NCBI RefSeq assembly: GCF_965363235.1
Contig: NC_134847.1
Coordinates: forward strand, 69,974,935-70,038,934
Source: Mytilus galloprovincialis
Lineage: Eukaryota
Length of the DNA: 64,000 nt
Direction: 5' to 3'
Position numbers and translations under genes: made by a program. How positions within the stretch are numbered: the stretch's first letter is position 1; each line of letters starts with the position of its first letter. The notes under the pieces were generated by a model. It saw only the letters and a list, made by a program, of their open reading frames with translations. It made no database searches and was not told where the DNA came from. Of the stretch, positions 4,285-32,889 are shown piece by piece.

Positions 4285-5565
4285 TAATCGGTTTTTATTG
4301 GGATACGATTGCTTTCAAGCAATCTGTAGACTTATACCAGTGGCTCAGAGCAATGCCCTCACGTCAATCGTTTTATTCTAAACATTAAGGAACATCTCAG
4401 ATGATTGTCTTGCTTTAAAAGGTAAAACCAAACAAAGAGATTGAACTTAAACATCTTTAATATAATGTTCTTTTCATAATCTTCATGTTTGATATTTCTC
4501 TTGACTTATATGCATGTTTTTAACAACACGGAAAATCAGAATTAAGCAGTATTTATCTTTAGTGTTTTTATAAATTTAGAAACACGTCAGAGGGAATTCC
4601 CCAGTTTTGATAAACATGCGAGAGTTCTCTGAATTCCGATAAATCTATTTCTGTCATATAAGAACTGAAGTGGAGTTTCTCTTATATATGTCACCGTTAT
4701 GAAACTGATATTTGATATTGTACTTCCATAAAGAAATAGAGAACCATCTAGGTCGTTTAATTAACATTTAATATACGTTCTTGCTCAAGGGTTTGTTAAG
4801 GTAATTATGCGCATGCGTATAGTTTTCTTGACTTTATGGGGTATTAGATTGAATGGTTGCTCTGGATTCCCCACTCAGTTGATTGATTTTAAACTCATGG
4901 GATCGTTTCTATATTTGTCTGATACTGAGGGTTATTATTGTTTCATAATTTTAAATCATATGCATCATTTAAATTAAAATAAATGTATTATCACATCGCA
5001 ACACCCCTTACGGCGAAATGGAGTCATCCATATTATCGTTACGAGTTGTCTCCCTTCTGGAAGTAACTTCCGTAAATTCTGAAAACAAAACATGTCGAGA
5101 AAAATTAACTCGTTTTGTCGATAAATGTCGTGTTAGATTAAATACGATTGCAGTTTTAACCGAGGAATGTGTACGGGAAGGAGTCATGACCACTGACCCA
5201 AAGGAAATTAAATATTTTTGAAAGAGTTAGGAATGGGGTTCCTCCTAGAATTATCGTAGGAAAATAGGTGATAAGATACGAAGTGAAATACCTTCTCTCA
5301 CTCTGAGTCTCTGCTGTACATGTGACCTCTGTGGAAAGTAAACATGGAATTTATAGTACAAAAATAAAACACAATGAATACATTGTTCGTACACTTGTAT
5401 CTGGGATTGGCTATTTTGTAACTTCAGATTACGTAAATTACATTTTACATGTGCAGTTGAATTAGCTTTGAAAATAATATTATCCAGCTACTTGTATACA
5501 TGTGTCAATGAAAACAATGGCAATCGTATCCCTCAGAGCAATCTGCTCTTTGATTGGTGTAGGAA
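4285..5565. repeat. Dispersed repeat family, roughly 1.3 kb, copy 1 (uninterrupted); second copy at 28670-32222
   Basis: Long collinear identity with 28670-29655 (gggatacgattgctt...gataagatacgaagtgaa), then with 30470-30495 and 31580-32222 of copy 2. Confidence 0.75.
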
Positions 5566-6374
5566 GCCGGAGTGCCCAGAAAAAACACTGACCTAACAGC
5601 CAATTAAAGTCTGAAGATTTGTACAACGATACTGATAAAAGATTAAAAAAAATATATGAACAAGATAAAATGAAAATGTTTTGAAAATTATTTTAGCATA
5701 ACAAAACATCATTGCCATTGTCAATCCCTTCTCAAAATGAAATAAAATAATAAAAGTTTCTTTTTTGTTTTAAAAAAAAGAACTCTTTCATTTAGGTAAA
5801 CTTGTGTTTGATTCTATAATCTTACACTCCATTGAAAAAATAACTTTACTCCATTTCAGATAAGCATGTAGCCTAATGTTCTCAACCTTATACTAAAGTA
5901 AAAGTGAATTTTATTTTTGACACCCCAATAATGGCCTGAGACCACAATTATCCCCCTTTGATTTTAATTGTCTTCGTCTTTTCACAGTACTTTAATTCAT
6001 AAAAATCTTAAAGTTAAGTTTCTTCTCTTATCTTGTCAATGAAAGCTTGTATTTCCAGCAGTCTTAAAGGATGCTATTTTCACAGCCCTATTCAACATTT
6101 ATTGATTTGGGATACTTTTGAAAAGTAACAGTGTAACATTCTTTCAACCCATACTTATATTTAATGATCTAATGATTAGACAGAATGGTATTGCACATTT
6201 ACACATCCCATAGAGAAAACAGACCCAAACTCAGCCAAGAGTCTACGGTTATGTTTCTTAAACGAAGATAAGATATTCATACTTCTTTAATTTGATTGCT
6301 CAAGGGAAACAATCAAAATAAATAACAAGTCTTACTTTGAGAGCATTAGCATTGGACGACATTATTGTTTTCAG

Positions 6375-6532
6375 AAATAATGGATCAAATTAATAAGGTT
6401 GAGTCAACACATGTGGATTTAACAGCTGAAGAGAGAAACTTGTTGTCAGATGTATTTAGAAGAGAAATCTTAACTAAAAGAACAATTTTGAGAAATAATG
6501 GCCGTAATGAACACAAAGAAAACAAGGGAAAG
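6375..6532 (+). CDS. 14-3-3 protein-like internal exon (helix 3 region with the EERNLLS motif)
   Basis: Acceptor ttttcag at 6373-6374. Translation ..IMDQINKVESTHVDLTAEERNLLSDVFRREILTKRTILRNNGRNEHKENKGK, where the NEERNLLS core is a 14-3-3 signature. Donor GTATAG at 6533. The ATG at 6380 is internal; N-terminal exon(s) were not found. Confidence 0.55.
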
Positions 6533-8994
6533 GTATAGGAATAAATCTCTGTTTTGTTTCAATTTTGTTAAAACCCAAAATGATTGTTAAAAAGTTATTT
6601 TATTTCATCTAACAGGCAAGCTACTAGAATAACATTCTTTCTCTTGTATTTTTGTATTGACCAAACGGGACTATCTTAAATTCTACAATGTAAATAAATG
6701 CAAGGTATACAGCTATTTGCGCTGCTTCTTACCTTTAAACTATGACCCTTACTCATAAGATAAACGGTGAGGCATACAGCTAAATGCTCTGCTTCTTACA
6801 TCTAGTAACCCATGGGCAGAGCCTTGGTGTAAGACAAATATAATGTAACGTTCTGAACAATACATGACAAGGTTGCGCTATATATGACATTATCGATACA
6901 GCTAATAACATAAAGTAAAAAGTACGTTAATTACTAATATACTAATCACTGTTGATAACTTCTGATAACTTATACAAAATCTTTTAATACAATAGTAACA
7001 CTATTTTTTACTTGGGAATAACTAGTGCACACATTTACAACAAAAAATCAATCACTTTTGTCTCTAGGTGACCGTGATAATAATTTTAAACTTTCATTCC
7101 AGGAGTTCTAATATTTCTTTTGAAAAGAAAATATTTTTAATCTTGATAAGGTTTTCTGTTATTCAAAACTGATTTTTATGCAGTTAAGCTGCATTATGCG
7201 AGCACCCGAGATTTGTGTTCTACCCAATAAATGCTGAAATACTTGCCATTGTTATTACCTAGCTGGCTACTATGTTATATATAACTAATTGAACACTTTT
7301 TTAATACTTTTAAATCTGGATTTCAAAAAATATGACAAGAAAAACCTAAAATGATGGTCGAATCGCCCAAAAGTTTTGAAGTTGCACATAGGAAGTAGTG
7401 CTTATTAGGAATCCTTGTGTAGTTTATTATTGCCTGTGCTTTTGGCTAAGATGTCAAAGAACAATTGTATGAAATATTTAATCGTCGAAAATCTCTTAAG
7501 ACAAGTAGTTTAGATTTCCAAAATGGCAAAAGTCGTAGGAATATTGTTTGTTGTCAATATGTAGTACAACTACGTCAGTAGTCTATTATATAATAAGTTC
7601 AACTGGTCATGCTGTTGGCGGCAATTTCAAATTAGGAGACGAATTTTTGTATCTTTTCAATTTTGAGGCAGGGATTCAAATTAGAGGTGGTCTAAGGTCC
7701 GCGACCATCCACTTTTGCAATCGGAATTTCGGATGGTTCATAGCTATGCCAGACAGACCTTCCACTTGAAAGAAAATAAAAAATAACTTTGCAAGCCTTT
7801 TCACCAAAGTCTCCAAATAAACAAAAACTTATTTTCATCATTATTATTCATGACAGCAATGTTCATTTTGATCAACCGCTAGCTTTATACAGAAAATCGC
7901 CGACAAATAATGTGTAAATTTGAGTAAAAATGTATCTGACTGACAAAATCAACATTGTAAACATAAACAATGGATGCCGTAATTACAATATCGATCCGAT
8001 TCCGGAAGCGGATAAGGGTAAATCCTGGGTTTTGGCGATCAACTACACAAAAATCCAGGCAGTTGACAAAATACATCTATGCATGGTTAATGAATATAAA
8101 CACTAGAATTGAAAACCAAAAGATATATGTAAAAGAAAGAAAAAGCAAAAAATATTTTATACAGAAACTCATATTTACTTTTTGACAAATTTTAATGTCA
8201 AAATCCAATACAATGTGACAGCTGGGAACAGTATATCTAACAATATATATGTTCCTGGTCACAGTATAAATTATCTTTATCTTTATGCATGTAAGATGCT
8301 TTTAAAGTGTAAACATATTACTGCAATTTTATAGGGGTATTTTTCTCTCAATTTTGAAGTGGGTCTCATTGCGGTCTAAGCGTGACGCGGGATTGCCGAT
8401 TTTTTGTAAGCATGACGTGGGAAAGTCAAATTATTGTGCCGTAAAAACGGGAATAAAGGTCTACCTTTACTATGAGCAGGTTATTCAGACCTCACCTTTA
8501 ATCCCTGTAGTAGGGAATTGTCTGATTTGTGTCTCATAACTTTTGTACTTATAGAACACAAACTCAGTTTTCTTTCCAGGGAAACTTGTCCATTCATACC
8601 ATTACATATTCGTAATAAGTCAACTTGTACTACTAGCAGTCAACTAAAACCAACGTTAACTACCAAGTAGAACAACTGCAATCATTGCGAACTTGTACCA
8701 CTGCAGACTCACCATAAAAAATATACATTGAAATATGCATTGCTTTTGAAACCTTGATAACATATAAATTATGTGCCTTAATAATTAATTCATTAGATAA
8801 ACATAAATGTACTATATATGAATGTTTAATGTTGAAGCAACAATGCCACAGTTTTCGTAATTACGTTTGTCTTGGTTTTTGGTTAACTGCCTTCAGCGCT
8901 TACAGCGCTTTGATTTAAAAATAGTCAAGGATTTTACTTTTTTATTAGTTTTTAAAAATGTTTAATGATATTAAATTTTAATTTTAGAGCTACT

Positions 8995-9990
8995 TTTTAT
9001 ACGATCTTACCAGGATCTTCCCCAAAAAGTTTGCAGACATACATTTGTATTACATTGTCGTCGTCAGCGTCGTCCAAAGTTTAAGACATTTGGTTTCTGG
9101 ACAATAACTTTAGAATAAGTGAATAGAAATCTATGAAATTTAAACACAAGGTTTATAACCACAAAAGGAAGGTTAGGTATGATTTTTGAAGTTGTGGTCC
9201 TCACAGTTAAGGAATAAGGGGCCAAAATGGGACCCAAATAAGCATTTTTCGAGTTTCCAGATATTAACTTGTGAAATGATGTATGGATCTCTCTGAAATA
9301 TACTACAAGGTTCCATATCAGAAAGGGATGGTTGTGATTGGCTTTGGGGGGTTAGGCTCAAACCGTTTAGGAACTAGAGGCAAAATAGGGGTAAAACAAG
9401 GGTGTTCTGGTTAATGGACAATTACTTTTAATTAAATGTTAAGTTTGGATTACCTCCCTTACACGGATTTTAAATTATTAAATGGGTAATTATGATTGCA
9501 ATCTCCATTGGACATTTGAATTCAGATTATTACCTTATCTTTAGGGAAAGAATATTATTTTTCTTAAGATTTAAAAAATTGAAAAGAGATTTTCAAAATA
9601 AATTTATTTGCCAATAAAGGGGAGTGAACAAAAATTTAGGGATCATTATTTTGTTTGGAGGGGTGGGGGTTAATTCTCAACAGCATAGTGAATTGCACCA
9701 AAAAAATGGGGTTATTTTTTTTTTGGGGGGGGGGGGTCAATTTGTAATAGCATGGTGTATTGCACAATAGCAAAAATTTTAATATAAATTCAAATCATTC
9801 ATATGACCGATTTTAAGTTCTTTGACTACAGTTATTCTCTGTGAGAAACCTGTTATGTGTCAGATATTGAATTACAATCCAAATTCAGACCTGTATCAAG
9901 AGCTAATATTGTGTCCATTTTTGTCCCAACTGTTCAGGGTTCGACCTTTTCAGTCGTATCTAGCTGTGCTTGGCGAAGCAATTTATTGGG
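8995..9990. mobile_element. Roughly 1-kb relative of the 2-kb composite element (see 15440-17435): 5' tttttatacgatc, 3' gttcagggttcgacc...cagtcgtatctagctg
   Basis: Shares the head (ttatacga.., gtcgtcgtc, aataactttagaataagtgaatagaaatctatgaaatttaaacacaaggtttataaccacaaaaggaaggtt) and the tail (gtcagaaacct..tgtgtca...aatccaaattcagac...gttcagggttcgacc) with copies A and B. Confidence 0.4.
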
Positions 9991-10043
9991 TTGTATTCTT
10001 TTTTTATTTGGGTAATCATATTAAACTACAGTTCATTTTGTAG

Positions 10044-10144
10044 ATGGATCTTAAGAATATTTGCCATAGTATTTTAGACATTTTAGATAACAAACTAATT
10101 CCTTATGCAGCAAGTGAAGAATCCAAAGTTTTCTACTATAAAAT
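10044..10144 (+). CDS. 14-3-3 protein-like exon
   Basis: Acceptor tttgtag at 10042-10043. [33 protein letters not shown] matches 14-3-3 ICNDVLELLDKYLIP...SKVFYLKMKGDY. Donor AT|GTAAGT at 10145. The split codon AT+G gives the conserved KM-KGEYY junction. Confidence 0.65.
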
Positions 10145-10354
10145 GTAAGTTTCACAAAAATTTCTTCAAATGTTAAAAGACCAAAGATTAAATTCTTCTA
10201 ATGTATTATTGGAAATTTCTTGACCACTTAGATTATTTATTCTATAAATTAAAGTTTAACTAAAAACTTTATGAATGACTGTTCTGTAGGTATTTTAGTA
10301 TAAAGTAAAAATCATTGATTGATCCAAAAATGTTTCAAGATTGTCATTATCTTT

Positions 10355-10500
10355 GTTTTTATAGCTGCCTATATGCTGTATGGGCTTTGCTCATTGTTGA
10401 AGGCTGTACAGTCACCTAGTGTTGTTAATTTCTGTGTCATTTGGTCTCTTATGGAGAGTTGTCTTATTGGCAATCAGACCACATTTTCTTTTTTATATTT
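10355..10500. repeat. SINE-like short interspersed repeat (family whose 5' head is gatgtggtatgattgccaatgagacaactctcca), full-length copy in reverse orientation
   Basis: Ends with ...atggagagttgtcttattggcaatcagaccacat, the reverse complement of the head seen at 11040, 13115, 13935, 22222, 28082 and 38062. Its body (gctttgctcattgttgaaggctgtacagt..acc) recurs at 23710-23830 and 34228-34330. Confidence 0.5.
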
Positions 10501-10520
10501 TGACCTTCCAAAATTTCCAG

Positions 10521-10879: not shown

Positions 10880-11104
10880 GTAAGTTTAGTGTTTATTTGG
10901 TAAAGCTACCATAATTACTGTCTTGACTGCATCAGAGTTGCAGAAGTGCAAGAAAGTACCAAAATAAAACCTTAGGCATGCTTTGGACATTGATAGCACC
11001 AACAATTGTTTATAGAGTATAAAGGAATCAGATGTGTTATGATTACCAATGAGACATCTAACCATATAAACCAAATGTAAAGATGAAAGCAATCTTTGGC
11101 GATG

Positions 11105-12215: not shown

Positions 12216-12579
12216 ATGTCACCAGAACAAAAGGGTTATGCCAGGTTTATTGATTCAGACGAAGATGCTAATGAATTATTTAGCTTTAAAATTTCTTCAT
12301 ATGCATCATGTGAGGATTTTGAGGAAGATGAAATTCTTGAAGAAGCTACGAGTATGATTTCTGAAGAAGGCCAATATAAGTCAAGCTCTGATGAAGATGT
12401 GCAGATAATGCCATTAGTATTAGATGCTGGATCACTCATGATGAAGGCAGGATTTGCTGGAGATGATCATCCTAGAGCTAATTTCCCAACAGCTGTAGGT
12501 AGACCTAGACATCAAGGGGTAATGGTTGGAATGGGACAGAAGGATGCATATGTTGGATTTGAAGCCTGTGGAAAACCAG
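12216..12579 (+). CDS. First coding exon: acidic N-terminal extension fused to an actin N-terminal fragment (actin residues about 8-62)
   Basis: Genuine ATG at 12216 with an upstream in-frame stop. ...[54 protein letters not shown] is near-identical to conventional actin ([50 protein letters not shown]). Donor G|GTATAA at 12580, phase 1. Confidence 0.6.
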
Positions 12580-12639
12580 GTATAAAACTTTCTGTTTAAC
12601 CATAACGGTTTGATACTGTGTTGATCATAAGGAAATGGG

Positions 12640-12960
12640 TCTACTTTATCACTAGCTAGTCAACACTGAGGTATTAAGTTCAAACCCTGCATTAAACAGG
12701 TGCACAGGACTCTAATAATCTTAATTGACTAGAATTGACAGTTTTCCTAATAATCTTAATTGACTAGAATTGACAGTTTTCCTAATAATCTTAATTGACT
12801 AGAATTGACAGTTTTCCTAATAATCTTAATTGACTAGAATTGACAGTTTTCCTAATAATCTTAGTTGACTAGAATTGACAGTTTTCCTATCTAAGGTCGT
12901 GGTTCTCTTTTGGCACTCAGGCTTCCTTCACCAACAAAACTGACCACCGCAAAATAGCAC
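12640..12960 (+). repeat. SINE-like repeat copy 2, carrying an internal 31-bp minisatellite (12718-12875, about 5 copies of taataatcttaattgactagaattgacagttttcc)
   Basis: See 11870-12060; the tandem units were read directly. Confidence 0.45.
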
Positions 12961-13548: not shown

Positions 13549-14571
13549 GTAATTGTATTTCTGATTTTTAAAAAAACAACTTCACAATTGTACTTCATCA
13601 TTTAGCTGCTGATTCTGTTGTAGCACTAAGCCACCGACACTTTTCATCTGAACCAAATAGACATTTAAACTTTGGTCAATACTCAAATAAGCAAATAATT
13701 TCTAAAACCTAAAGAAAATTTTAAATGTCTCAGATTTTTGCAGCGTACGTTTGCCTTCTCTATAACAAAATCCCCTATTTCCCTTATTTCACAAACTTAT
13801 TACAAATGGTTCTTTTGCCTTGTATAATACTGCAATAAAGATAATTCACTCACAATATTGAATAAAGATGTCATTATACTTCCAAAGAAAAACTATCTAA
13901 ACACAAATAAATTTTTCCTAAAATTCCATACCTTTAAAGATGAAGATGTGGTTTGATTGCCAATGAGACATCCAAATGATACGAAAATTAACAGTTATAG
14001 GTCACTTTACAACCTTCAACAATGAGCAAAGCCCTTACCACATATAGTCAGCTATAAGAGGCTCCAATATCACAAATGTAAAAGAATTCAAACGAGAAAA
14101 CTAACCGCATGATTAATGTACAAAAAAAAGACTGAAGAGCAAGTATGTAACATAGCAACAAAAGACAACCTCTAAATTACAGGCTATTAACTAGGGACAG
14201 GCACATAAATACAGAATGTTGTAGGGCTAAACATTATAGCTGGCTGCCTGATTTATGAAAAATTTCCCTTGAGGAATGTTGACATTCGATTTAAAATCCT
14301 CCATAACATTATCTAAATATCTAAATAAAAAAAAGCCATCCAAAGGGGTTGGAAATATATTTAAGCACTTAATTATACTCATTCAAATCCTTAATAAGGG
14401 GTCTGACATGAAAATATAAAACAATTCAAATGAGAAAACTAACAGATTAAATTAAAAACAAAACAATTTAAGAAAAAAATAATTAAAGATATGAACTAAT
14501 AACCACTGAACAACAGGCAACCTGACTTTGAACTGGCACATAAAGAATGTGATAGGGTCAACATGTTTGTT

Positions 14572-14955
14572 AGTGCTTAACTCTCACACTAGTCTTAGAC
14601 AGTGGTGTTTAACTCTCACACTAATCTTAGACAGTGGTGTTTAAGTCTCACACTAGTCTTAGACAGTGGTGTTTAAGTCTCACACTAGTCTTAGACAGTG
14701 GTGTTTAACTCTCACACTAGTCTTAGACAGTGGTGTTTAACTCTCACACTAGTCTTAGACAGTGGTGTTTAACTCTCACACTAGTCTTAGACAGTGGTGT
14801 TTAAGTCTCACACTAGTCTTAGACAGTGGTGTTTAAGTCTCACACTAGTCTTAGACAGTGGTGTTTAACTCTCACACTAGTCTTAGACAGTGGTGTTTAA
14901 CTCTCACACTAGTCTTAGACAGTGGTGTTTAACTCTCACACTATTCTTACACATT
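14572..14955. repeat. Minisatellite: 30-bp unit (ttaa[c/g]tctcacactagtcttagacagtggtgt) x about 13, near-perfect
   Basis: Direct reading. No unique spacers between units, so not CRISPR. Confidence 0.9.
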
Positions 14956-15439
14956 GGACTAAACCGTTAAAATTAGTTGCAATTGGTTTAAGTCAAAAGA
15001 TCAGTAATAGTCATGAAAACAACTAAAGTGCTAAAAAAACAGGCAAAAAAAACCCAGAGATAAGAGAATTTGCAGTTAATATATTTTGTGCTGTTGTCAT
15101 CCTTTTGTTGAACATTTTCATATTTGCCTGGCAAGTCATAAATGTTGGCATAAATGATGAACAGCAGTTCACAATTAGACTTGACAAAACAAGTGGGATC
15201 TCTATACTATTACAATAAAAAATTTTAGAATGAGGAAGGGAAAAAAATTTATGTTTAATTTGAAAAGAACCTCAACCTGAGTGACAAATAACTCATTGGT
15301 GGACAAAAGTTATCTGATAAAAAAAAACACACACTTTGATATGAAACTTTCTACAAGAACAATTTTATAAGAAAAAAAAACATAAAACTCTCATAATAAG
15401 ATGGCACTAATTATAAACTCATGTAATACAACAGATTTA

Positions 15440-15495
15440 TTTTTATACGACCGCAAAATTTGAAAAATTTTTCGTCGTATATTGCTATCACGTTG

Positions 15496-15533
<38 letters not shown>

Positions 15534-17435
15534 CGAATACTTTTAGTTTTCGCACTCTAACTTTAGTAAAAGTGAATGGAAATCTATGAAATTTTAACAC
15601 AAGGTTTATGACCACAAAAGGAAGGTTGGTATTGATTTTGGGAGTTTTGGTCCCAACATTTTAGGAATTAGGGGCCAAAAAGGGCCCAAATAAGCATTTT
15701 CTTGGTTTTCGCACTATAACTTTAGTTTAAGTTAATAGAAATCTATGAAATTTTGACACAAGGTTTATGACCACAAAAGAACGGTTGGGATTGATTTTGG
15801 GAGTTTTGGTCTCAACAGTTTAGGAATTAGGGGCCAAAAAAGGGCCCAAATAAGCATTATTCTTGGTTTTCGCACAATAACTTTAGTTTAAGTAAATAGA
15901 AATCAATGAAATTTAAACACAATGTTAATGACTACAAAAGGAAGGTTGGTATTGATTTTGGGAGTTTAGGTCCCAACAGTTTAGGAATTAGGGGCCAAAA
16001 AGGGACCCAAATAAGCATTTTTCTTGGTTTTCGCACCATAACATTAGTACAAGTAAATAGAAATCTATGAAATTTAAACACAAGGTTTATGACCATAAAA
16101 GGAAGGTTGGTATTGATTTTGGGAGTTTTGGTCCCAACAGAATAAGGGGCCCAAAGGGTCCAAAATTAAACTTTGTTTGATTTCATCAAAATTGAATAAT
16201 TGGGGTTCTTTGATATGCCGAATCTAACTGTCATGACTGTGTATGTAGATTCTTAACTTTTGGTCCCGTTTTCAAATTGGTCTACATTAAGGTCCAAAGG
16301 GTCCAAAATTAAACTTAGTTTGATTTTGACAAAAAATGAATCAGTTAGGTTCTTTGATATGCTGAATCTAAAAAATGTACTTAGATTCTTGATTATTGGC
16401 CCAGTTTTCAAGTTGGTCCAAATCGGGGTCCAAAATTAAACTTTGTTTGATTTCATCAAAAATTGAATAAATGTAGTTCTTTGATATACCAAATCTAACT
16501 GTGTATGTAGATTCTTCATTTTTGGTCCTGTTTTCAAATTGGTCTACACTAAAGTCCAAAGGGTCCAAAATTAAACTTAGTCTGATTTTAACAAAAATTG
16601 AAATCTTGGGGTTCTTTGATATGCTGAATCCAAAAATGTATTTAGATTTTTTATTATGGGCCCAGTTTTCAAGTTGGTCCAAATCAGGATCTAAAATTAT
16701 TATATTAAGTATTGTGCAATAGCAAGTCTTTTCAATTGCACAGTATTGCGCAATGGCAAGAAATATCTAATTGCACAATATTGTGAAATAGCAAATTTTT
16801 TTTTAATTAGAGTTATCTTTCTTTGTCCAGAATAGTAAGCAAGAAATATCTAATTGCAAAATATTGTGCAATAGCAAGATTTTTTTTTAATTGGAGTTAT
16901 CTTTCTTTGTCCAGAATCAACTTAAATCTTTGTTATATACAATATACAATGTATATTCACTTTTTACTACCAACTGATAAATTAAAATAATCTTTACCAT
17001 TCAGTGATAACAAGCAGTTTTTTTACATCTTAATATTTTATGATGTATTTAAATGAGTAGTTATTGTTGCAAACTCCATTAGAAATTTTAATTGAGATTA
17101 GTTTTGGAATAAGGGAAAGGGGGATGTGATTAAAAAAATTGGGTTCAATTTTTCTCATTTGAAATTTCATAAATAAAAAAGAAAATTTCTTCAAACATTT
17201 TTTTGAGAGGATTAATATTCCAACAGCATAGTGAATTGCTCTAAGAGAAAACAAAAATTTTAAGTTCATTAGAACACATTCATTCTGTGTCAGAAACCTA
17301 TGCTGTGTCAACTATTTAATCACAATCCAAATTTAGAGCTGAATCCAGCTTGAATGTTGTGTCCATACTTGCCCCAACCGTTCAGGGTTCAACCTCTGCG
17401 GTCGTATAAAGCTGCGCCCTGCGGAGCATCTGGTT
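15440..17435. mobile_element. About 2-kb composite non-autonomous element, copy A
   Basis: Starts tttttatacgaccgc and ends ...gcggtcgtataaagctgcgccctgcggagcatctggtt. It contains (GTC)12 at 15495-15533, about 4 copies of a roughly 180-bp subrepeat, about 2.5 copies of a roughly 250-bp subrepeat (ggtccaaaattaaact...) and attgcacaatagcaag repeats. It is over 97% identical to 25977-27961. No ORF with any recognisable domain. Confidence 0.7.
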
Positions 17436-17761
17436 GACTTTGTTAAATGAACTAAGGATTAGCATCCAGTGGCAAATATTTCATGCAAATGCATTATGAA
17501 AACAGATAAACATTACTAGTACAATAAAATCCCCGAGTCCATGGCTGATAAATTATAATTAAGCCCTCTGCTATTCCTGTGTTTGCTAGTGAGGTCAGAA
17601 TTATATATTCATGCAAATGTGTAACCTACATATAATATTTATTCATATACTCATATTTATTGAATACACTAGAAAAGGTTGAAGATTATAATTTTTTTAG
17701 AAATATTAAGATACAATATTGAATGAAAAAATAGTTGATTTACAATTTTTGCATTTTGTAG

Positions 17762-18801: not shown

Positions 18802-19550
18802 GTAAGTAAAAAGATACCTGTACTTATAATATGAATGTCAAATGAATGATTAATTTGAACCAATTATAGATAATGACAAATGAAAAAGTTAGTTTAATTT
18901 GAACCAATTTTAGATAATATCAAACAAATAGTTCCGATTTTGAAAACTTAGTTTAAAAGTGTTGTTTTTACGATTTGCAAAATCTCATTTCCACCATCAG
19001 ATATATATGATATTATGATTCCTTGGGTTGCGAGTGTTTTCTATTTTAAAAGGAAATCTAAACTTCTTGTTCTTTTTCACATCGATTTATGTAATAGCAA
19101 AGAACAACTACTATCCTATATATGTCAGCATTTATATACTTGGCAAACGACTGTTCAGTCAACTTTGAATCCCTGCCATTGTTGTGATATGCTGAATAGA
19201 TTTGAACTGGTAGATGCGAAGCAGTCAGCTGTGAACAATAAAAACTCTTGTTAAAACTTATTTCAGTCACATTGTTTAACATGGAGCAAAAGCTCTCACC
19301 TCACTGCAAGTTTAAGACCTTAATAGCACTGGTTTATTGGAAATTCTTTGCAAACTAAATTAATGATTATGCCACAACTGTAAAAGAACAAAGCCATTCA
19401 GTAATATCAATAAAATAAATCACAGGCACATAGATCGAGATATATATGTTATATAACTTGGCAGGCAATGCTATATGTATAGGGCAAAAAATTAGATACA
19501 CTTTGTTAGATGAAAAACCTCATTTTTAAAATGATTTCTTAATTTTCTAG

Positions 19551-21850: not shown

Positions 21851-22959
21851 TAATAAATAAGAATCTATCAAACAATAAACAATTACAAGTAAGAATTCTA
21901 ACAAACTAAATGTGATAAGTTTTTATGTTTATTTGATTTTATTTTTTTAAAGCAGAATTACCTAGAAAAAAGGACAAAAGAAATATCCTTGTTTTTATTG
22001 GGATTTTCGTTCTGGTAGTAAACTGTTATTTTCATATCTTTGCAATTTTTCCTGCTTGAAGCACATTAAATAAATTTCATTCATTTTGATAGGAAGCAAG
22101 GAATTGCCCTTTTCTCTTTCATTTATCGTGAAATAATCATTTACAATGAAACAGTGGATATGCATGTATCCCCCCTTTACCCATTTTTAGTAATTTGTAT
22201 GTTAACAAAATAGATAGAGGAAAATGTGGTAATTTACAATGAGACAACTCTCCATTCAAGTAAAAAATTATAAAAGTAAACCATTAAAGGTCAAGGTACA
22301 GCCTTCAATCCGAAGCTTTGGCTCACACTGAACAACAAGCTATAATTTTAGGGCTCCAAAAATTTATAGCTATAATAATATAGTGTAAAACAATTCAAAG
22401 GGGGAAACCAACGGCCTTATCTGTATATACCATGCACTTCCATTTAATACAGCAGAGAATAAATGTTTGCCAATAGAATTTAATAAAATTTGATAACAAA
22501 AATGGAGAAAACAAGCATTTATATATAGCTTTTATAAGTGCACAGTAATTATTTTGACATTATGCTGATGATCAGGGTTTGAATCTCAACAGGTATCATT
22601 AGTTGTAATCAAATCAAATACTGATGTTAACCAATTATAAATTTTTGGTGCATGCGAATTTAAATCAAAGATAGTTGTCTCTTTTTATTGTGAAATTATA
22701 TATGATCATATATCAATGTACATAACGGTGGCAAAACAGAAGTCAATTTTATTATTAATATATTACTGCTGGTGGGTGGTGAAGGACACTTAATATTTTA
22801 TTCTCCTCCTTTGGAGGTGTGCCTACACTGGCAGAATCTAACACAGATACAGATATGAATTAGCAACCTTGATCTGAATTGCTTTTGATTTTTTGATTGG
22901 TCAAACTTTTTTCCAACATACAGGGATACTTTATTTTAATTCGTAAAAAGAAAAGAAGA

Positions 22960-23543: not shown

Positions 23544-24047
23544 GGTAAAAAATAACAGGCTTAATAAAAAATAAATACTAATTAAGAAAGGTTAGAACTC
23601 AGATAATTAAATGAACAGTTTGTTTATGTGTTACATATTTGTTTTTCGTTCATTTTTTTATATAAATAAGGCCGTTAGTTTTCTCGTTTGAATTGTTATA
23701 CATTAGTTATTTCTATGCCTTTTATAGCTGACTATGCAGTATTGGTTTTGCTCATTGTTGAATGTGATACAGTGACCCACAGTTTTTATGACATTTGGTC
23801 TCTAATGGACAGTCATCTCATTTCAATTATAATACATCTTTTTATGTTCATATATAAACATAAATTCCAATGAGACATTTCAACATGTGTGCTTTTGTAT
23901 TTAAATATGCACACAAACTCAACCAGGTTTAGCTTATGTATCTCTGTATGTTAGTCATTTGATAGGAATGGAAAATATTCATGAAAGAAGATTGATATTA
24001 GATTAGATTAGATTAGATTATTAATGAGTTTTATAATATATAATCAG

Positions 24048-24206: not shown

Positions 24207-25976
24207 GTAATATAATTTCAATATTGATGTTCCCGTCATAGTGGAGGGGAAATTAAGTTATAACCTTGTCCGTCTGTACATCTGTATGTTCTTAATTTGG
24301 TTTCTATTCTCTAACTTTAGTTTGCCTCAACCAAATGTTATGAAACTTAAACAAAATGTTAAATTACAGTCGACTGTTTTAATTGCATAATTCGTTGAAT
24401 TGCATACTTTTCTCCTGCACAAAGCCATTTCCTATTCATCTAATGTTAAATTGTCCAGTTATATGCATAGCCTTACAAGTGGCCTTTTGGTTAATTGCAT
24501 AGAAAATATTCACCAGCTAGATATGCTTAGTTAAAACTGACAAGATTTTTGATCGGAAACGTCATTTTGGTAAGTATATTTTTCTTGAATGCATCATAAT
24601 TTTCGTTATTATTTCATGTTTTCCTTTGTGTTGTTTAAATAAAGTTTTAAAACAGTTTCTTTCGTGTTCATATGATTATTAAAAAAGCCCATGTTCTATT
24701 TTAAGGTCATAAAAATGTTAACAGGTGATTGTGGTAAAAAACAAGACCATCCTATCTCAAAAGGTGTTAATTATTGATTGGATTTCATACATTGTTCATA
24801 GATTACATTTGGGTGAATTTTAAAAACAATAACCCCTGCTAATTATTGATCATTATCCCACGTGGATCATGTGTACTGTCATAATTTGGCTTGGGGCGAT
24901 CTACACATATGTTTAATATTACAGCCTATAGGGCATTTATATATGGTTGAAGAATTTTTATACATCAATCTTTAATTTAATATTTTTTTTAAAGAACATT
25001 AACTTCTAATTATTCTATTTTCTCACTTTCAACACTCATGTTCATCAAATAACCCATGCAGGGCCCCATTACCCGTTAACTGCTTTGCATATACGAAACT
25101 AACGTGGTTAGAGAAACAGTATTACATCACTGTGCAAGTGTTTAATACTGCAAATCAAAGGCAGTCCAGTACACATTCATTATTATTAGCTCACCTGGCC
25201 CTTCTAAGTGAGCTTTTCTCATCACTTTGCGTCCATTGTCGTCCATTTGTTGTCTTTAACTTTTACAAAAATCTTCTCCTCTGACACTACTGGGCAAAAT
25301 TTCACCAAACTTGGCCTTAATCATCACTAGGGGTATCTTTTACAAAATGTGTCCAGTGACCCAGCCCACCAACCAAGATGGCCGCCATGGCTAAAAATAA
25401 AACATAGGAGTAAAATGTAGATTTTGGCTTATATCTCTGAAACCAAAGCATTTAAAGCAAATCTGACATGGGGTTGAAATTGTTTATCAGATCAAGATCT
25501 ATCTGCCCTCAAATTTTCAGACAAATCAGACAACCAGTTGTTAGGTTGCTCTCAGACAGCCCCCAAAATATTAATTTTAAGGAAATTTTGCAGTTTTTGG
25601 TTATTATCTTGAATACTATTATAGATAGAGATAAACTGTAAACAGCAATAATTTTCAGTAAAGTAAGATCTACAAATATGTCAACATGACCAAAATGGTC
25701 AGTTGAACCCTTAAGGAGTTATTGCCCTTTATAGTCAATTTTTAACAATTTTCATTAATTTGGTAAATTTTTGTAAATTTTTACAAAATAATTTCCTCTG
25801 TTACTAATGGGCAAAGTTTTTTGTTTCTATTCTCTTACTTTAGTTTGCCTCATCCAAATGTTATGAAACTGCTACACAATACTTTCGACCACAAAACATA
25901 GTTAAAGTTTGAATTTTGGTGGCGTCAATTCTACTGTTCTAGGAATCTGCCCTTAACAAATTAAAAAATTGCTGAT

Positions 25977-27961
25977 TTTTATACGACCGCAAATTTTGAA
26001 AAAATTTTCGTCGTATATTGCTATCACGTTGGCGTCGGCGTCGTCGTCGTCATCCGGCGTCCGAATACTTTTAGTTTTCGCACTCTAACTTTAGTAAAAG
26101 TGAATGGAAATCTATGAAATTTTAACACAAGGTTTATGACCACAAAAGGAAGGTTGGTATTGATTTTGGGAGTTTTGGTCCCAACATTTTAGGAATTAGG
26201 GGCCAAAAAGGGCCCAAATAAGCATTTTCTTGGTTTTCGCACTATAACTTTAGTTTAAGTTAATAGAAATCTATGAAATTTTGACACAAGGTTTATGACC
26301 ACAAAAGAACGGTTGGGATTGATTTTGGGAGTTTTGGTCTCAACAGTTTAGGAATTAGGGGCCAAAAAAGGGCCCAAATAAGCATTATTCTTGGTTTTCG
26401 CACAATAACATTAGTTTAAGTAAGTAGAAATCAATGAAATTTAAACACAATGTTAATGACTACAAAAGGAAGGTTGGTATTGATTTTGGGAGTTTAGGTC
26501 CCAACAGTTTAGGAATTAGGGGCCAAAAAGGGACCCAAATAAGCATTTTTCTTGGTTTTCGCACCATAACGTTAGTATAAGTAAATAGAAATCTATGAAA
26601 TTTAAACACAAGGTTTATGACCATAAAAGAAAGGTTGGGTTTGATTTTGGGAGTTTTGGTCCCAACATAATAAGGGGCCCAAAGGGTCCAAAATTAAACT
26701 TTTGTTTGATTTCATCAAAATTGAATAATTGGGGTTCTTTGATATGCTGAATCTAACTGTCATGACTGTGTATGTAGATTCTTAACTTTTGGTCCCGTTT
26801 TCAAATTGGTCTACATTAAGGTCCAAAGGGTCCAAAATTAAACTTAGTTTGATTTTGACAAAAAATGAATCAGTTAGGTTCTTTGATATGCTGAATCTAA
26901 AAATGTACTTAGATTCTTGATTATTGGCCCAGTTTTCAAGTTGGTCCAAATCGGGGTCCAAAATTAAACTTTGTTTGATTTCATCAAAAATTGAATAAAT
27001 GGGGTTCTTTGATATACCAAATCTAACTGTGTATGTAGATTCTTCATTTTTGGTCCTGTTTTCAAATTGGTCTACACTAAAGTCTAAAGGGTCCAAAATT
27101 AAACTTAGTCTGATTTTAACAAAAATTGAAATCTTGAAGTTCTTTGATATGCTGAATCCAAAAATGTACTTAGATTTTTTATTATGGGCCCAGTTTTCAA
27201 GTTGGTCCAAATCAGGATCTAAAATTATTATATTAAGTATTGTGCAATAGCAAGTCTTTTCAATTGCACAGTATTGCGCAATGGCAAGAAATATCTAATT
27301 GCACAATATTGTGAAATATCAAATTTTTTTTTAATTAGAGTTATCTTTCTTTGTCCAGAATAGTAAGCAAGAAATATCTAATTGCAAAATATTGTGCAAT
27401 AGCAAGATTTTTTTTTAATTGGAGTTATCTTTCTTTGTCCAGAATCAACTTAAATCTTTGTTATATACAATATACAATGTATATTCACTTTTTACTACCA
27501 ACTGATAAATTAAAATAATCTTTACCATTCAGTGATAACAAGCAGTTTTTTTACATCTTAATATTTTATGATGTATTTAAATGAGTAGTTATTGTTGCAA
27601 ACTCCATTAGAAATTTTAATTGAGATTAGTTTTGGAATAAGGGAAAGGGGGATGTGATTAAAAAAATTGGGTTCAATTTTTCTCATTTGAAATTTCATAA
27701 ATAAAAAAGAAAATTTCTTCAAACATTTTTTTGAGAGGATTAATATTCAACAGCATAGTGAATTGCTCTAAGAGAAACAAAAATTTTAAGTTCATTAGAA
27801 CACATTCATTCTGTGTCAGAAACCTATGCTGTGTCAACTATTTATTCACAATCCAAATTTAGAGCTGAATCCAGCTTGAATGTTGTGTCCATACTTGCCC
27901 TAACCGTTCAGGGTTCAACCTCTGCGGTCGTATAAAGCTACGCCCTGCGGAGCATCTGGTT
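25977..27961. mobile_element. About 2-kb composite non-autonomous element, copy B
   Basis: Collinear with 15440-17435 over its whole length, including the GTC microsatellite (shorter here) and all subrepeats. Flanked on both sides by copies of a roughly 130-bp local repeat (tctcttactttagtttgcctcaaccaaatgttatgaaac) at about 25830 and 27975, also at 24255 and 28195. Confidence 0.7.
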
Positions 27962-29655
27962 TTCATTTCCATTCCCTTACTTAAGTTTGCCTCAACTAAA
28001 TGTTATGAAACATATAAAAAATGCTTAAGTTCCAATTTTGGTGGCATCACTTATGCTTTTCTATAGTTATAGATATAAGAAGATGTGGTATGAGTGCCAA
28101 TGAGACAACTCTCCATCCAAGTCACATTTTGTAAAAGGAAACCATTTTATACCTCTTTACAAATGGAAAAGATGCTGATTTTTTTTGTTTCGTTCTCTTA
28201 CTTAAGTTTGTCTCAACTAAATGTTATAAAACATGCACACAATGTTTATTACCACAAAACTCAGATCAAGTACAAAGGAGTAGGTCCGTTAAGGGCCGAT
28301 TTCAAGTTCATCTAACGAAAGATATTAGACACTTTTTAAACACTCAAGTGTCTATTTCAATTGATTCAATTAGTTTATGTGAATGATTTTAACTGATTTA
28401 GTCATTAAAAACACTCCGATTCAAGCTTAAGGAGGCTCGCGGGTATAAGATTTTCAGAAAAAAATTAAACATTAATTTTTCATTACAAATTTTATTGATT
28501 ACCTTAAGTAGCTGTTACTTTATCATATGGTACAAAAATCATTCCAAAAAATCAATTCGTGTTGGCCCCAGCGGACTTTTAAACTGTAGATGCCATTGAA
28601 AAGCTTCAAATTATCTCCCTTTGGTGCAAAAAGCCATTTTTTGGCATAAAAATTGAAATATCTTTTTTAACTCATCGGTGACCTATATTTTTGGGATACG
28701 ATTGCTTTTAAGCAATCTGTAGACTTTTACCGTTTACTCGGGGCTCATTCCCTCACGTCAACCGTTTTATTCTAAACATTCAGCAACATCTCAGATTCTG
28801 ATGATTGTCTTGCTTTAAAAGGTAAAAACAAGCAAAAGGATTGAACATAAACAACTTTCCTGTAATGTTCTTCTCATAATCTTCATGTTTGATTTTTCCC
28901 TTGACTTATATGCGTGTTTTTAACAACACGGAAAATCAGAATTAAGCAGTATTTATATTTAGTGTTTTTATAAATTTAGAAACACGTCAGAGGGAATTCC
29001 TCAGTTTTGATAAATGCGAGAGTTCTTTGAATTCCGATAATCCTATTTCTGTCATATAAGAACTGAAGTGGAGTTTTCTATATTTTACCGTTATGAAACT
29101 GATACTGTACTCTCATAAAGAAATAAGAAATTGAGACTCATTCATCATATCATAAATTAAATAAACGTTCTTGTTCCAAATCGCGAGTCGTCGGTTTGTT
29201 TATGTATTAATGCGCATGTGTATAGTTTTCTTGATTTCAAGGGGTATCAGATTGAGTGGTTGTTCTGGATTCCCCGCTTATTAATTAATTTGAAACTCAT
29301 TGAATTCTTTCTATGTCTGCCTGCTATTGAGGGTTTAATAATGTTGTTGCATAATTTAAAATCATATGCATCATTTAAATTAAAATCAATGAAGTTTTAC
29401 CTATAACACCCCTTTAGCCGAAATGGAGTCTTCCATATTATCGTTTCGAGTTGTCTCCCTTTCAGAAGTATTTCCCGTCAAAATCTTCAAGAAAAAATTA
29501 ACTTGTCGATAAACGTCGTATTATATTAAGAACGATCTCAATTTAAACAGAGGAGTGTATATGGAAGGGTTCATGCCCACTGACCCAAAGGAAAAGATTT
29601 AGAAATGGGGTTCCTCCTAGAATTAACGGTGATAAGATACGAAGTGAATAGTCCG

Positions 29656-29990
29656 AGATTACTGGGTACAAGTCAAATCGGCACCCGTAGAAAAAGTCAA
29701 ATCGGCACCTATTTAAAAGTCAATTCGGCATCCAATAATATTTGATATAATATACGGGACTGGGAAATGGGGTTCCTCCTAGAATTAACGGTGATAAGAT
29801 ACGAAGTGAATAGTCCCGAGATTATTGGTTACTTGTAGTGAAATCGGCACCTGGTCAAATCGGCACCCAAAGAAAAAGTCAAATCGGCACCTGGTTAAAT
29901 CGGCATCTAGTCAAATCGGCACCTATATATTTAAAATTCAATTCGGCATCCAATAATACTTGATATAATATATCGGACTGGGACTATTTA
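29656..29990. repeat. About 165-bp tandem duplication with tcaaatcggcacc subrepeats (about 9 copies of caaatcggcac/caattcggcat)
   Basis: ggaaatggggttcctcctagaattaacggtgataagatacgaagtgaatagtcc(c)gagatta...caaatcggcacc... occurs twice in tandem. Confidence 0.6.
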
Positions 29991-30059
29991 AGTTAACTTT
30001 GTAATTTAAGTATACTAGCATAAAAGTCCCCCACGGTCCCAGCTTGTCTGGCAAATCAG

Positions 30060-30300
30060 CCGTCACAAAGCTTTACATAAAAAGATAGTCATAAATATAC
30101 CAGATTATGTAGAAGAACAAGGCAGGACAACACGGCAATACCACCGAAGCAAATTTAGAAACCTTCAAACTTCAACAAACACCTACAAATACAGCTTCTT
30201 TCCACGTACCATCAAAGACTGGAATACTCTACCAATAAGACTGTTAAATATAGAAGATGCAGAGGCATTCAAGAACAGCCTCACATCTTATTTAACAGAG
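30060..30300 (+). mobile_element. Short 3' fragment of a retroelement ORF (...YSFFPRTIKDWNTLPIRLLNIEDAEAFKNSLTSYLTE*)
   Basis: Open frame ending in a stop at about 30300. I recall the SFFPRTIxDWNxLP motif as a conserved C-terminus of retroelement-encoded proteins in marine invertebrates; this was not verified here. Confidence 0.3.
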
Positions 30301-30505
30301 TAGTCACGCAACAAACATTTGATTTTAATTTCACATGTAAATACGTTTTTAATGAGCACCATATTGAATGACCAAATTAGTACTTGCGTGATGGGTCTTA
30401 GACCCTTTGCATTTCAACGACATAGATGTAGATGTAGATGTCGGACATCAGAGTAATCTCGAACTATGAAATGAAATACCTTCTCTCTCTCTCTTCAGGG
30501 CCGTA

Positions 30506-31579
30506 ACTACCTATGAGGCAGGGGAGGCAACTGCCTCTCCTGAATTTTCTACACCATTTTTTTTTAAGTAATAAAATGAAATATTGACAATATGTACACG
30601 AATAACTTGAATTTGTATTATAAACAATACAAGTTTACAGTTTTAACAGTGTTATCATGATACGTGATATATGTCATTTTCCAGATTTTTGATCGATAGT
30701 GGCCGTCCGTCTGTTATTCAGTATTTGTAAGAGAACACATATGAAACTTTGCTTTCGACAATTTTGAATAAAACTTAACTGTTCACATGTATTGAGGGGC
30801 TCAATTAAGCGGAGGAGGTTCCCTTTGTATTATGAATCTTTAATGATACCAGAAATTCGTTACCGACTGAATCAGCTGTTGGATCATTTATTTTAACGTC
30901 TCCAGATCGTACGAGAACATTGTGGTCAATGCCTTAGTAGTTAGTAGTTAAACACTCCCATTCGTTGTAGCAGTGACTTTCTATACTAAGTATATACTAG
31001 TATAGAAAGTCCCTGGTTGTAGTTATATACATGTCTGTTCAGCTGTCAACAATATTGAAATTCAAGGTCCTCGATAAAAAAAAAATATCTTCCGTTCTAT
31101 GATCTTGCTTTTTTAACTTACCAGTTTGATTTCTAACTAAAATATCTTTAAATACAGATAATAATTGTTTGCATAAAAATTGCTTCCAGGATCCAGCAAT
31201 ACTGATGTTTCTTAAAGTAAGGAAATCGAAGGAAAACAGGTCATTTTTAGCCACTGATTCTATTGAGAAAACAATCCGCTGTCACAAGGTATTTAATGTT
31301 AATAATTATAGGTCAAAGTACGGCCTTCAAGACGGAGCCTGGGCTCACCCCGAACAACACTCTCAGCAATCTCAGCTTGTTTTTGCATAAAATTTGCTTC
31401 CAGGTTCAAGCAATCCTTAAAGTAAGGAAATCAAAGGAAAAAGGGTGATTTTTAGGCATTTTACTGAGAGAAAAAAAAAAATGGCGGGGGCTGCGCCCCA
31501 ACCCCCTTCTCTTGGGGGCATCAGTCGGCTACCCACAAACCCCTGCCTCCCCTGAATTGGAACCCTAGTTACGGCCCTG
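30506..31579. mobile_element. 1.07-kb non-autonomous DNA transposon-like element with 14-bp TIR CAGGGCCGTAACTA, nested inside repeat copy 2
   Basis: The left end cagggccgtaactacc and the right end ..ctagttacggccctg are reverse complements. It contains an internal roughly 150-bp tandem duplicate (gcataaaa(a/t)ttgcttccagg..taaagtaaggaaatc(g/a)aaggaaaa). The corresponding site in copy 1 (about 5290) is empty. The TSD is unclear because the flank is a CT run. Confidence 0.65.
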
Positions 31580-31875
31580 CTCTCAGTGACTGCTGTGGAA
31601 ATTAAACTTGGAATTGATAGCACACAAATAAAACACAATAAGTACATTGCTCGTACACTTGTATCCGGGATTAGCTATTTTTAAAGTTGAGTGACTATTC
31701 AGATTTATATTACCTTTGCATGTGCAGTTGAATTAGTTTTTGCGGTCATAAAACTTTCGAGTCAGTTTTTTTGTATTCACACTCGAAAATGAATCAATGA
31801 AATTGCTTGATTTCTTGTTTCGAGCATGATTTTTGTGCTCCAAGCACTGAGCAAAGTTTTATGCCTTCAAGGCCA

Positions 31876-32009
31876 TAGTCCAAATAATTATGACGTCTTG
31901 GAAGGCTATTATAATTTTTTTCTTTGAAGCCTTACTTCGACGTCGAAGTAAGGCGTCAACCAAAAATAATTATAATAGCCTTTCAAGACGTCATAGTTAT
32001 TTGGACAAT
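31876..32009. mobile_element. 134-bp palindromic MITE with 8-bp target-site duplication CAAGGCCA
   Basis: The arms tagtccaaataattatgacgtcttggaaggctattataatt and aattataatagcctttcaagacgtcatagttatttggacaat pair nearly perfectly. caaggcca sits at 31868-31875 and 32010-32017. It lies in a roughly 400-bp segment absent from copy 1 of the host repeat. Confidence 0.65.
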
Positions 32010-32889
32010 CAAGGCCAGGGCTGCCAAAAATGTGTGAGACTCACGCATGTTCATGCTTTTTTGCAGCAGTATCCTTGGATCAATTTTTTCCTCTTTGATC
32101 TTTTCTATTTTGGCCAAATCTCACGAATTTGCTTGGTGAAAAGTTGGCAGAACTGCTATACATGTGTCAATGAAAACTATATGGCAATCGTATCCCTCAG
32201 AGCATTCTGCTCTTTGATTTATTGTAGTTTTCGAATAAGCTGTACATAGACTAAATAATAGTAAAATTTTAACGATTTCTGTAATTTAGTTATTTTTTTA
32301 TTTCGATATTGCCGCTATTTCTCCTATTAGTTCAACAGAAAAAAGGGACATTAACAAAAATGTATGCTCCTTTCGAAGGCAGATTGTGAGCGTAAATGAA
32401 CGGTGACCCCATTTTTTTATTTCATTTTTCTATTAAGTATAAGATAAAGTTCATTTATAGAAAAATATAGAGAAATCCTATATTAAATAAAAAATTTCAT
32501 TTAGACCCGCGAGCCCCCTTAAATATGAAAAATCTATAAAATATGCAAAAAAACGTCACTTTTTAGATGGTTTTTGTCAAAAATGAAAGTGGCTGCATCC
32601 GTGTTTATCCTCAACCTTTAAATATATTATGTATCATCATCAAATACAACTTACATTTCAATATTATGAATGAACAACAAAGCGACTACTTTCATTTAAG
32701 ATGGAAACCATCTAAAATTAAACTAAAATGCTAAAATTGTGAAGATTTCAGTAATTTAGCATGACTTAATGATGCTAGTACCCGATATATGTGCATTGTT
32801 TGGTCAAATACAGCCCATATTTATGTAGCAGAAGCATTCTACTTTCCAATAGATAGCTTAAAGATTACATTTTCACAATTTTATAAAAC

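Follow-up and report, generated by a model that had tools for sequence, protein, structure and literature searches.

Nested insertions in one of two copies of a probable Helentron-derived repeat in Mytilus galloprovincialis

A 64,000-nucleotide stretch of Mytilus galloprovincialis DNA (contig NC_134847.1, positions 69,974,935 to 70,038,934; hereafter the window) contains two copies of a 1.26-kb repeat. Copy 1 is uninterrupted, while copy 2 is broken by extra DNA at three places. From the structure of its ends, the repeat is very probably a non-autonomous Helentron-type rolling-circle transposon (a Helentron-derived non-autonomous element, HINE), the copies of which would have landed independently, with other elements hitting copy 2 later. 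The main features are listed with their coordinates in Table 1.

The 1.26-kb repeat and its termini

Copy 1 together with 1.5 kb of flank was used as a BLASTN query against the whole window. Three collinear blocks were obtained, all on the plus strand: 4295-5287 against 28688-29648 (79.1% over 1,024 columns, E = 0), 5322-5469 against 31586-31740 (79.9%, E = 6e-34) and 5495-5555 against 32157-32219 (93.7%, E = 2e-20). A gap-tolerant global alignment, used as a second method, agreed. With the three extra segments cut out, 1,215 positions align, at 83% identity between the two copies. They are 24 kb apart in the same orientation, and no alignment of their 1.5-kb flanks was found beyond the three blocks, leaving sharp edges of homology. 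An earlier note on this DNA had described two copies of a 1.3-kb repeat, the second collinear with the first and interrupted three times. Both alignments reproduced that description, with outer limits that had been drawn 3-18 bp too wide: the left ends are at 4295 and 28688 instead of 4285 and 28670, and the right ends at 5555 and 32219 instead of 5565 and 32222. The repeat had been left unclassified there, and its Helentron-type anatomy had not been recognised.

In copy 1, a subterminal inverted repeat (subTIR) of 13 nt, GGGATACGATTGC, lies at 4300-4312, directly after a T-run at the homology edge. An inverted-repeat scan found its 100% complementary partner, GCAATCGTATCCC, at 5520-5532; the chance expectation for such a perfect 13-mer pair in 1.45 kb is estimated at about 0.02. 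The pair is perfect in copy 2 as well (28693-28705 and 32184-32196), and in both copies it is asymmetric, the 5' arm standing at the edge after TT/TTTTT and the 3' arm 23 nt inside the homology edge. A hairpin, GATTGCTT-TC-AAGCAATC, overlaps the 5' subTIR at 4307-4324 of copy 1, and its DNA fold has z = -2.7 there and z = -3.9 in copy 2. At the other end, the 23 conserved nt past the 3' subTIR hold a palindrome, AGAGCA-ATC-TGCTCT (5535-5549 in copy 1), which begins 2 nt past the subTIR and has a 6-bp stem and a loop of (A/T)TC across both copies. Because this stem is short, the fold z-scores are only -1.5 to -1.8. Copy 1 terminates in ...TTGATT at 5555. Inspection of the flanks found no direct repeat or target-site duplication (TSD) of any length at either copy.

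When metagenomes were scanned for the structural pattern GGGATACGATTGC-N(2-8)-GCAATC, 36 loci were returned, two of them true relatives (L026 and L035). Their flanks are unrelated to those of the window copies, which indicates a dispersed mobile family and not a local duplication. In all four copies the left junction consists of unrelated flank, a T-run (TTTTT in three, TTTTTATT in copy 1) and then GGGATACGATTGC. The hairpin, as GATTGCTT-NN-AAGCAATC, is also kept in four of four, with one stem mismatch in L026. The family termini can be written as TTTTTGGGATACGATTGC ... GCAATCGTATCCC plus the palindrome. Kimura two-parameter (K2P) distances are 0.17 between copies 1 and 2, 0.055 between copy 2 and L035, and 0.11 between copy 2 and L026. 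The last part of L026 (2256-2563, about 300 bp) was rejected as a homologue of either window copy, its alignment not going beyond chance. Viral-contig scans for the ends of the repeat and for the palindromic element described below, a metagenome scan for AATGGGGTTCCTCCTAGAATTA and two genome-contig scans gave zero matches. A protein search for spurious gene calls in other copies, with a 1,558-amino-acid query made by joining every open frame in the repeat and in its inserts, gave no match.

Published HINEs have subTIRs of 12-15 nt, lying a few nt inside the 5' end but tens of nt inside the 3' end, with a 3' palindrome; their boundaries are marked by strings of 2-5 Ts, a TT target and no TSD (PMC4067079; PMC7492417). 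In DINE-1 and Cg_HINE the 5' subTIR is in addition matched by a short inverted repeat that is complementary to it (PMC4067079; PMC7492417). Compared by published layout, not by consensus sequence, the 1.26-kb repeat resembles Cg_HINE of Crassostrea gigas, DINE-1 of Drosophila and the Pearl-type elements of bivalves in its subTIRs (11-15 nt in these systems), its nested 5' inverted repeat, its 3' subTIR followed by a palindrome, its T-rich boundaries, apparently without TSD, and its lack of coding sequence. The same layout is found in two canonical HINEs of the window (15439-17435 and 25975-27961), which have the subTIR core ATACGA in common with it. Unlike these neighbours, which have both, the 1.26-kb repeat lacks a left-flank microsatellite and a central array of about 160-bp units. 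HINE copies are mobilised in trans by the Helentron Rep/helicase, in a single-strand, rolling-circle-type process that leaves no duplication.

Some observations speak against this classification. Tandem Repeats Finder (TRF) detected no tandem array within 4295-5555, although a microsatellite and central repeats are common, not obligatory, in bivalve HINEs. No Rep/helicase open reading frame (ORF) is present among the window ORFs of at least 110 amino acids, and no autonomous Helentron partner (Rep/helicase/endonuclease) with these termini was found there. Insertion between two Ts and absence of a TSD were read from inspection of the flanks only, and the 3' end is covered by two copies only. 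A canonical Helitron was ruled out, there being no 5' TC, no 3' CTRR and no A/T target. The perfect 13-nt inverted repeat near both ends would also suit a classical cut-and-paste transposon with terminal inverted repeats (TIRs), or a long miniature inverted-repeat transposable element (MITE). We consider that quite unlikely: in both copies the right arm is set 23 nt inside the edge of homology and the left arm comes straight after the T-run at the opposite edge, neither copy is flanked by a TSD, and HINEs and DINE-1 have been described with this asymmetric plan of a nested 5' hairpin and a 3' palindrome (PMC4067079; PMC7492417), which is also seen in the canonical HINEs of the window. Less probable still is that ordinary, non-mobile DNA was duplicated segmentally on the spot and then diverged. 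This would fit two copies of one orientation 24 kb apart in a single window, but homology stops abruptly at both ends, and the two further copies, found on metagenome contigs unrelated to the window, have other flanks; one of the two is nearer to copy 2 (94.5-94.7%) than copy 1 is. Hence, a Helentron-derived element is the reading we retain for the repeat.

Inserted DNA in copy 2

The first interruption (insertion a) is bounded by TIRs, ATAGTCCGAGATTACT at 29648-29663 and AGTAATCTCGAACTAT at 30452-30467, which are complementary at 15 of 16 positions in the inverted-repeat scan. The left TIR starts exactly at the alignment breakpoint. A 7-bp repeat lies outside the TIRs (GAAGTGA at 29641-29647 and GAAATGA at 30468-30474, 6 of 7 matching), whereas copy 1 shows GAAGTGA only once (5280-5286) and then continues, like copy 2, with AATACC. 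Since TIRs at the breakpoint are combined with the 7-bp repeat, the first gap is read as a TIR element with its TSD; an 8-bp TSD was ruled out as out of register. The chance of finding TIRs of 16 nt here, or of 14 nt as in the second interruption, at the breakpoints was estimated at about 1e-6 to 1e-5 each, with a slack of +/-10 nt. The earlier note had filled this gap with a tandem duplication and a retroelement ORF fragment. Both exist, and both are secondary to the TIR carrier, which had been missed together with its TSD.

Insertion a holds a GTCAAATCGGCACC minisatellite (TRF, 29670-29734). In the tandem duplication, the first 53 nt of the two units (29602-29654 and 29764-29816) are 100% identical at a spacing of 162, and unit 2 is longer because the minisatellite has expanded in it. 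The 162-bp unit spans the left junction of host and element, with 46 nt of the HINE and the left end of the TIR element. Since it includes that end, the duplication must be later than the insertion of element a. Tandem duplication and minisatellite growth come about by replication slippage or unequal exchange. The GTCAAATCGGCACC minisatellite recurs at 4140-4226 of L001, an 831-kb contig of a related organism (ENA ERZ21930238), where it is preceded by ATAGTCC. A homologous element end could not be demonstrated in that ATAGTCC, as no matching right end was found.

The retroelement piece inside insertion a is the 3' end of a non-LTR retrotransposon, its ORF tail ending in ...YKYSFFPRTIKDWNTLP...SYLTE and the stop codon. 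It is 98.6% identical to ENA contig L011 over 30063-30431. Homology to other copies begins at 30063; L011 continues the ORF upstream, where the window has no match. The 88-amino-acid translation had eight homologues (E from 8e-45 to 7e-8), and a profile of these homologues matched 5,969 representatives. Among these matches are the C-termini of two proteins (residues 721-847 of the 850-amino-acid P0040 and 523-646 of the 653-amino-acid P0145), both of which have RVT_1 upstream. The fragment is like other 5'-truncated long interspersed nuclear elements (LINEs) in retaining only a C-terminal ORF tail, a 3' untranslated region (UTR) and a short tandem-repeat tail, and in having the C-termini of RVT_1 proteins as homologues. 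It differs from them in lacking a clear TSD, with only GTC shared. Copies of this type arise by target-primed reverse transcription that stops early. A CR1/L2-like affinity may be suspected from the C-terminal motif ...FFPRTI.DWN.LP... only. Comparison of the window with itself gave no nucleotide match between the fragment and the full-length LINE at 57746-63243. Judged by eye, the ORF2 C-termini seem unrelated, and the two look like members of different families.

The second interruption (insertion b) carries perfect 14-nt TIRs at the gap edges, CAGGGCCGTAACTA at 30496-30509 and TAGTTACGGCCCTG at 31566-31579. A 1.07-kb element with a 14-bp TIR had been described here. The element and its TIR are real, and its start was misplaced by 10 bp (30496, not 30506). 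Near its ends are inverted G-rich motifs, and direct repeats (31168-31274 against 31382-31475) lie in its interior. It contains no ORF of more than 86 codons, and includes a piece of about 60 bp (about 31296-31359) of an unrelated interspersed repeat. When the element and one copy of its putative 7-bp TSD are removed, copy 2 aligns well with copy 1, in which the counterpart of that TSD is CTCTGAG (5301-5307). A viral-contig scan for the TIR gave three matches, all of them 16-17-nt chance matches in GC-rich contigs.

In the third gap, each copy has private sequence. The extra 400 bp or so claimed for this position and the MITE within it exist, but segment c is a replacement and not a clean insertion. 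Its left part is an inverted-repeat unit of about 131 bp with arms at 31740-31757 and 31853-31870 (18 nt, 83%), which folds end to end with z = -2.6. The palindromic MITE follows; its arms (31875-31921 and 31963-32009) are 91% complementary, and its DNA fold reaches -53.7 kcal/mol with z = -19. It is flanked by a perfect CAAGGCC (31868-31874 and 32010-32016, 7 of 7), and an 8-bp reading, CAAGGCCA, also fits. The earlier claim of a 134-bp palindromic MITE with a TSD is thus borne out by the arms, the fold and the flanking CAAGGCC(A), which allows a TSD length of either 7 or 8 bp. The right part (32010-32156, about 147 bp) has weak CAGGGCTGCCAA / TTGGCAGAACTG ends; 32016-32155 was rejected as a separate MITE, there being no end-to-end fold (z = -1.6). 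The palindromic MITE is the only part of segment c that can be called precisely. It has the terminus ATAGTCC in common with insertion a, and a 7-bp duplication fits both.

TIR elements move by cut-and-paste transposases, here presumably with staggered 7-bp cuts. The inserted elements are similar to MITEs and non-autonomous TIR elements with TSDs of 7-8 bp (hAT-, P- and Mutator-like) in their short TIRs, their lack of coding sequence and their target duplication, and the 135-bp element is similar in being palindromic as well. The 8-bp TSD expected of hAT elements is the point of difference: insertion a has 7 bp only, insertion b matches at 5 of 7 at best, and the MITE reads as 7 or 8. The 7-bp duplication would argue against a typical hAT assignment.

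Insertion or deletion, and the order of events

The use of an uninterrupted paralogous copy to define element ends and target duplications is routine in Helentron and HINE papers (PMC4067079; PMC7492417 Supplementary Figure S2). The present case differs in that the reference copy is about 15-17% diverged and has indels of its own. The pair of a filled and an empty site does work, and at least three extra pieces of copy 2 have insertion signatures exactly at the alignment breakpoints. What could not be maintained is the view of copy 1 as a clean pre-insertion reference. In a four-way alignment, copy 1 lacks stretches of 6 bp and 13 bp that are present in copy 2 and in L026; L035 has the 6-bp stretch and ends before the 13-bp site. 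Because these stretches are missing only from copy 1, it does not represent the pristine ancestral state. Precise boundaries, which had been expected throughout, were obtained at base level for two or three junctions and not for the remaining ones.

The earlier note had named its own refutation: the repeat family would have carried the extra segments from the start, and copy 1 would have lost them. The private deletions of copy 1 favour this, as does the fact that it stands farthest from the other copies (K2P of 0.17-0.19 from copy 2 and L026, and of 0.10 from L035, which is short); moreover, segment c is without an insertion signature, and sites b and c are covered by the window copies alone. 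Such deletions would, however, have had to remove units with 16-nt and 14-nt TIRs precisely, together with one copy of the flanking direct repeat. With TIRs and direct repeats at independently defined breakpoints at sites a and b and at the MITE, precise deletion from copy 1 is very unlikely. The LINE fragment, 98.6% identical to another copy, must also be much younger than the repeat, of which the host copies are only 83-85% identical. Whether other family members hold the segments could be checked at site a only. There L026 is without the insertion-a sequence, in agreement with insertion, but its own sequence ceases to follow either window copy about 6 bp or less from this point. Taken together, these findings leave deletion little probability, and we keep to insertion into copy 2, although for the outer parts of segment c the change may have gone in either direction.

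Other points count against a series of insertions at this locus. The putative TSD of insertion b (CTCTCTT at 30489-30495 and CTCTCAG at 31580-31586) matches at 5 of 7 positions and is CT-rich. Segment c has no TIR/TSD pair at its outer edges, and no TSD flanks its sub-units of about 131 bp and 147 bp. No second copy of insertion a, b or c and no transposase partner was found in the window, in the fetched loci or in public collections, so that their mobility is read from the termini only. A sensitive BLAST search of each inserted piece against the window gave, outside the query regions, only exact matches of 14-16 nt (E 0.005-0.025). Inserts a, b and c could have been acquired in a master or progenitor copy before copy 2 transposed, and the LINE fragment could have been part of element a before that element inserted.

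With insertion as the preferred reading, the following order of events may be proposed. The two HINE copies would have inserted independently into T-rich sites without TSD and would since have diverged to about 0.17 substitutions/site. Copy 2 would then have received the roughly 280-bp TIR element by cut-and-paste transposition with a 7-bp duplication, and a young 5'-truncated LINE would have been reverse-transcribed into this element, presumably at this locus. The 162-bp tandem duplication and the expansion of the minisatellite would have followed, by slippage or unequal exchange, copying the left junction. The 1,084-bp TIR element would have inserted 14 bp farther downstream, counted along the HINE from the first site, and the 3'-end region would have been remodelled by at least one small inverted-repeat element, one being the palindromic MITE with its perfect duplication. 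In this account the alignment, the termini, the duplications, the retrotransposon homology and the copies elsewhere are direct observations, while the succession of events, the way in which each element moved and the superfamily of the TIR elements are inferred.

L026 has inserts of its own at other positions: a nested 1.08-kb TIR element at 660-1741, with ends GTCTCACTAATTAG...CTAATTAGTGAGAC and an 8-bp direct repeat CATGCGTG, and an 84-bp insert at 2150-2233 flanked by GGGTTCCTCCTA. Small transposons thus commonly colonise such elements. One might go further and regard the 3' quarter of the HINE as a preferred landing pad for small DNA transposons with unusual 7-bp duplications. Copy 2 has three unrelated non-autonomous elements over a span of about 200 bp of HINE sequence, two of them with the ends ATAGTCC...GGACTAT, and the break in L026, an independent copy, falls about 6 bp or less from the site of insertion a; even so, we think the idea unlikely to hold.

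Table 1. Features of the window and related copies (window positions; accessions for copies elsewhere)
Feature	Position or accession	Strand	Details
HINE-like repeat, copy 1, uninterrupted	4295-5555	+	BLASTN, alignment, inverted-repeat scan
HINE-like repeat, copy 2, interrupted	28688-32219	+	host blocks 28688-29647, 30468-30495, 31580-31740, 32157-32219
Insertion a, non-autonomous TIR element	29648-30467	.	about 280 bp before secondary events
Tandem duplication	29602-29983	+	unit 1 29602-29763 (162 bp), unit 2 29764-29983
5'-truncated non-LTR retrotransposon 3' end	30063-30440	+	80-codon intact ORF tail, 3' UTR, (TAGATG)3 tail 30423-30440
Insertion b, non-coding TIR element	30496-31579	.	1,084 bp; inverted-repeat scan
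Segment c, composite	31741-32156	.	416 bp; copy 1 has 25 bp here (5470-5494)
Palindromic MITE	31875-32009	.	134-135 bp; ATAGTCC...GGACAAT
HINE relative L026	JACSEI010000943.1		covers equivalent of 4295-5280
HINE relative L035	ORXM01016288, marine metagenome		covers first roughly 460 bp
Canonical bivalve-type HINE pair	15439-17435 and 25975-27961	same orientation as 1.26-kb repeat copies	98.2% identical to each other
Full-length LINE, apparently intact	57746-63243		ORF1 674 amino acids, PHD finger; overlapping ORF2 1,216 amino acids, Exo_endo_phos and RVT_1

Repeat context and meaning

The whole window is AT-rich (GC = 32%) and of eukaryotic appearance. Over its full length it gave zero matches in tRNA scans and in Rfam scans at gathering thresholds, and readings as short interspersed nuclear elements (SINEs), tRNAs or known RNAs were therefore dropped. 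Its repeat types are those described for bivalve molluscs (PMC7492417), with many arrays of tandem repeats of about 160 bp across it. Each member of the canonical HINE pair begins with TTTTT-ATACGACCGCA, followed by the inverted repeat CGTCGTAT and a (GTC)n microsatellite. Tandem arrays of 161-bp and roughly 135/262-bp units make up the interior, and the 3' side has the subTIR TGCGGTCGTAT and about 28 nt with a palindrome, the last letters being GGTT. Partial relatives of these HINEs lie at 9057-9980 and about 32900-34228 (3' subTIR at 34185). An abundant interspersed repeat with the consensus ...GAAGATGTGGTATGAGTGCCAATGAGACAACTCTCCA...GGTCAAAGTACGGCCTTCAACACGGAGC... occurs at 22211-22430, 13942-14169, 23618-23729, 10389-10488, 28070-28149 and 38054-38095. 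It is also present at 31296-31359 in the 1,084-bp TIR element and at 2200-2460 of L035 (minus strand), where it adjoins the truncated HINE.

No exact copy of the full-length LINE was found in the gene-position collection. Just 5' of this LINE, 184/368-bp tandem repeats form two inverted arrays of about 1 kb each (53972-55067 and 56005-57057; 84% identity between arms). Very young tandem arrays are present at 46035-46825 (359 bp x 2.2, 96%), 46936-47247 (155 bp x 2, 100%), 14573-14957 (32 bp x 12, 97%) and 12712-12889 (35 bp x 5, 99%). Directly 3' of a HINE, at 17719-18834, is a proline-rich ORF of 371 amino acids with repeated GIPPPPPP motifs, for which a search of 5.8 billion clustered proteins returned no homologue at E <= 1e-5. 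A 127-amino-acid ORF at 12216-12599 resembles the N-terminal region of actin in its C-terminal half and is probably an exon of an actin-like gene.

The interruption of copy 2 is real and the logic of the empty site is sound; what it shows is the usual nesting of transposons in an invertebrate genome rich in repeats. The value of the result is mainly for annotation, and it opens no new biological question. It also illustrates that diverged paralogous copies make imperfect empty sites. What is new is the identification of the repeat as a probable tandem-repeat-free HINE family, a fourth mobile element (the TIR carrier of the first gap), the corrected coordinates and the limits of copy 1 as a reference. 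Base-level ends are now given for the 280-bp TIR element, the 1,084-bp TIR element and the palindromic MITE, and they can seed a repeat library for the source genome. In the unlikely case that the ATAGTCC elements and the 7-bp TSD define a transposon group not described so far, a pair of its insertions would be documented here for the first time. For bivalves, a family free of tandem repeats is added to the Helentron-derived elements already known to fill their genomes.

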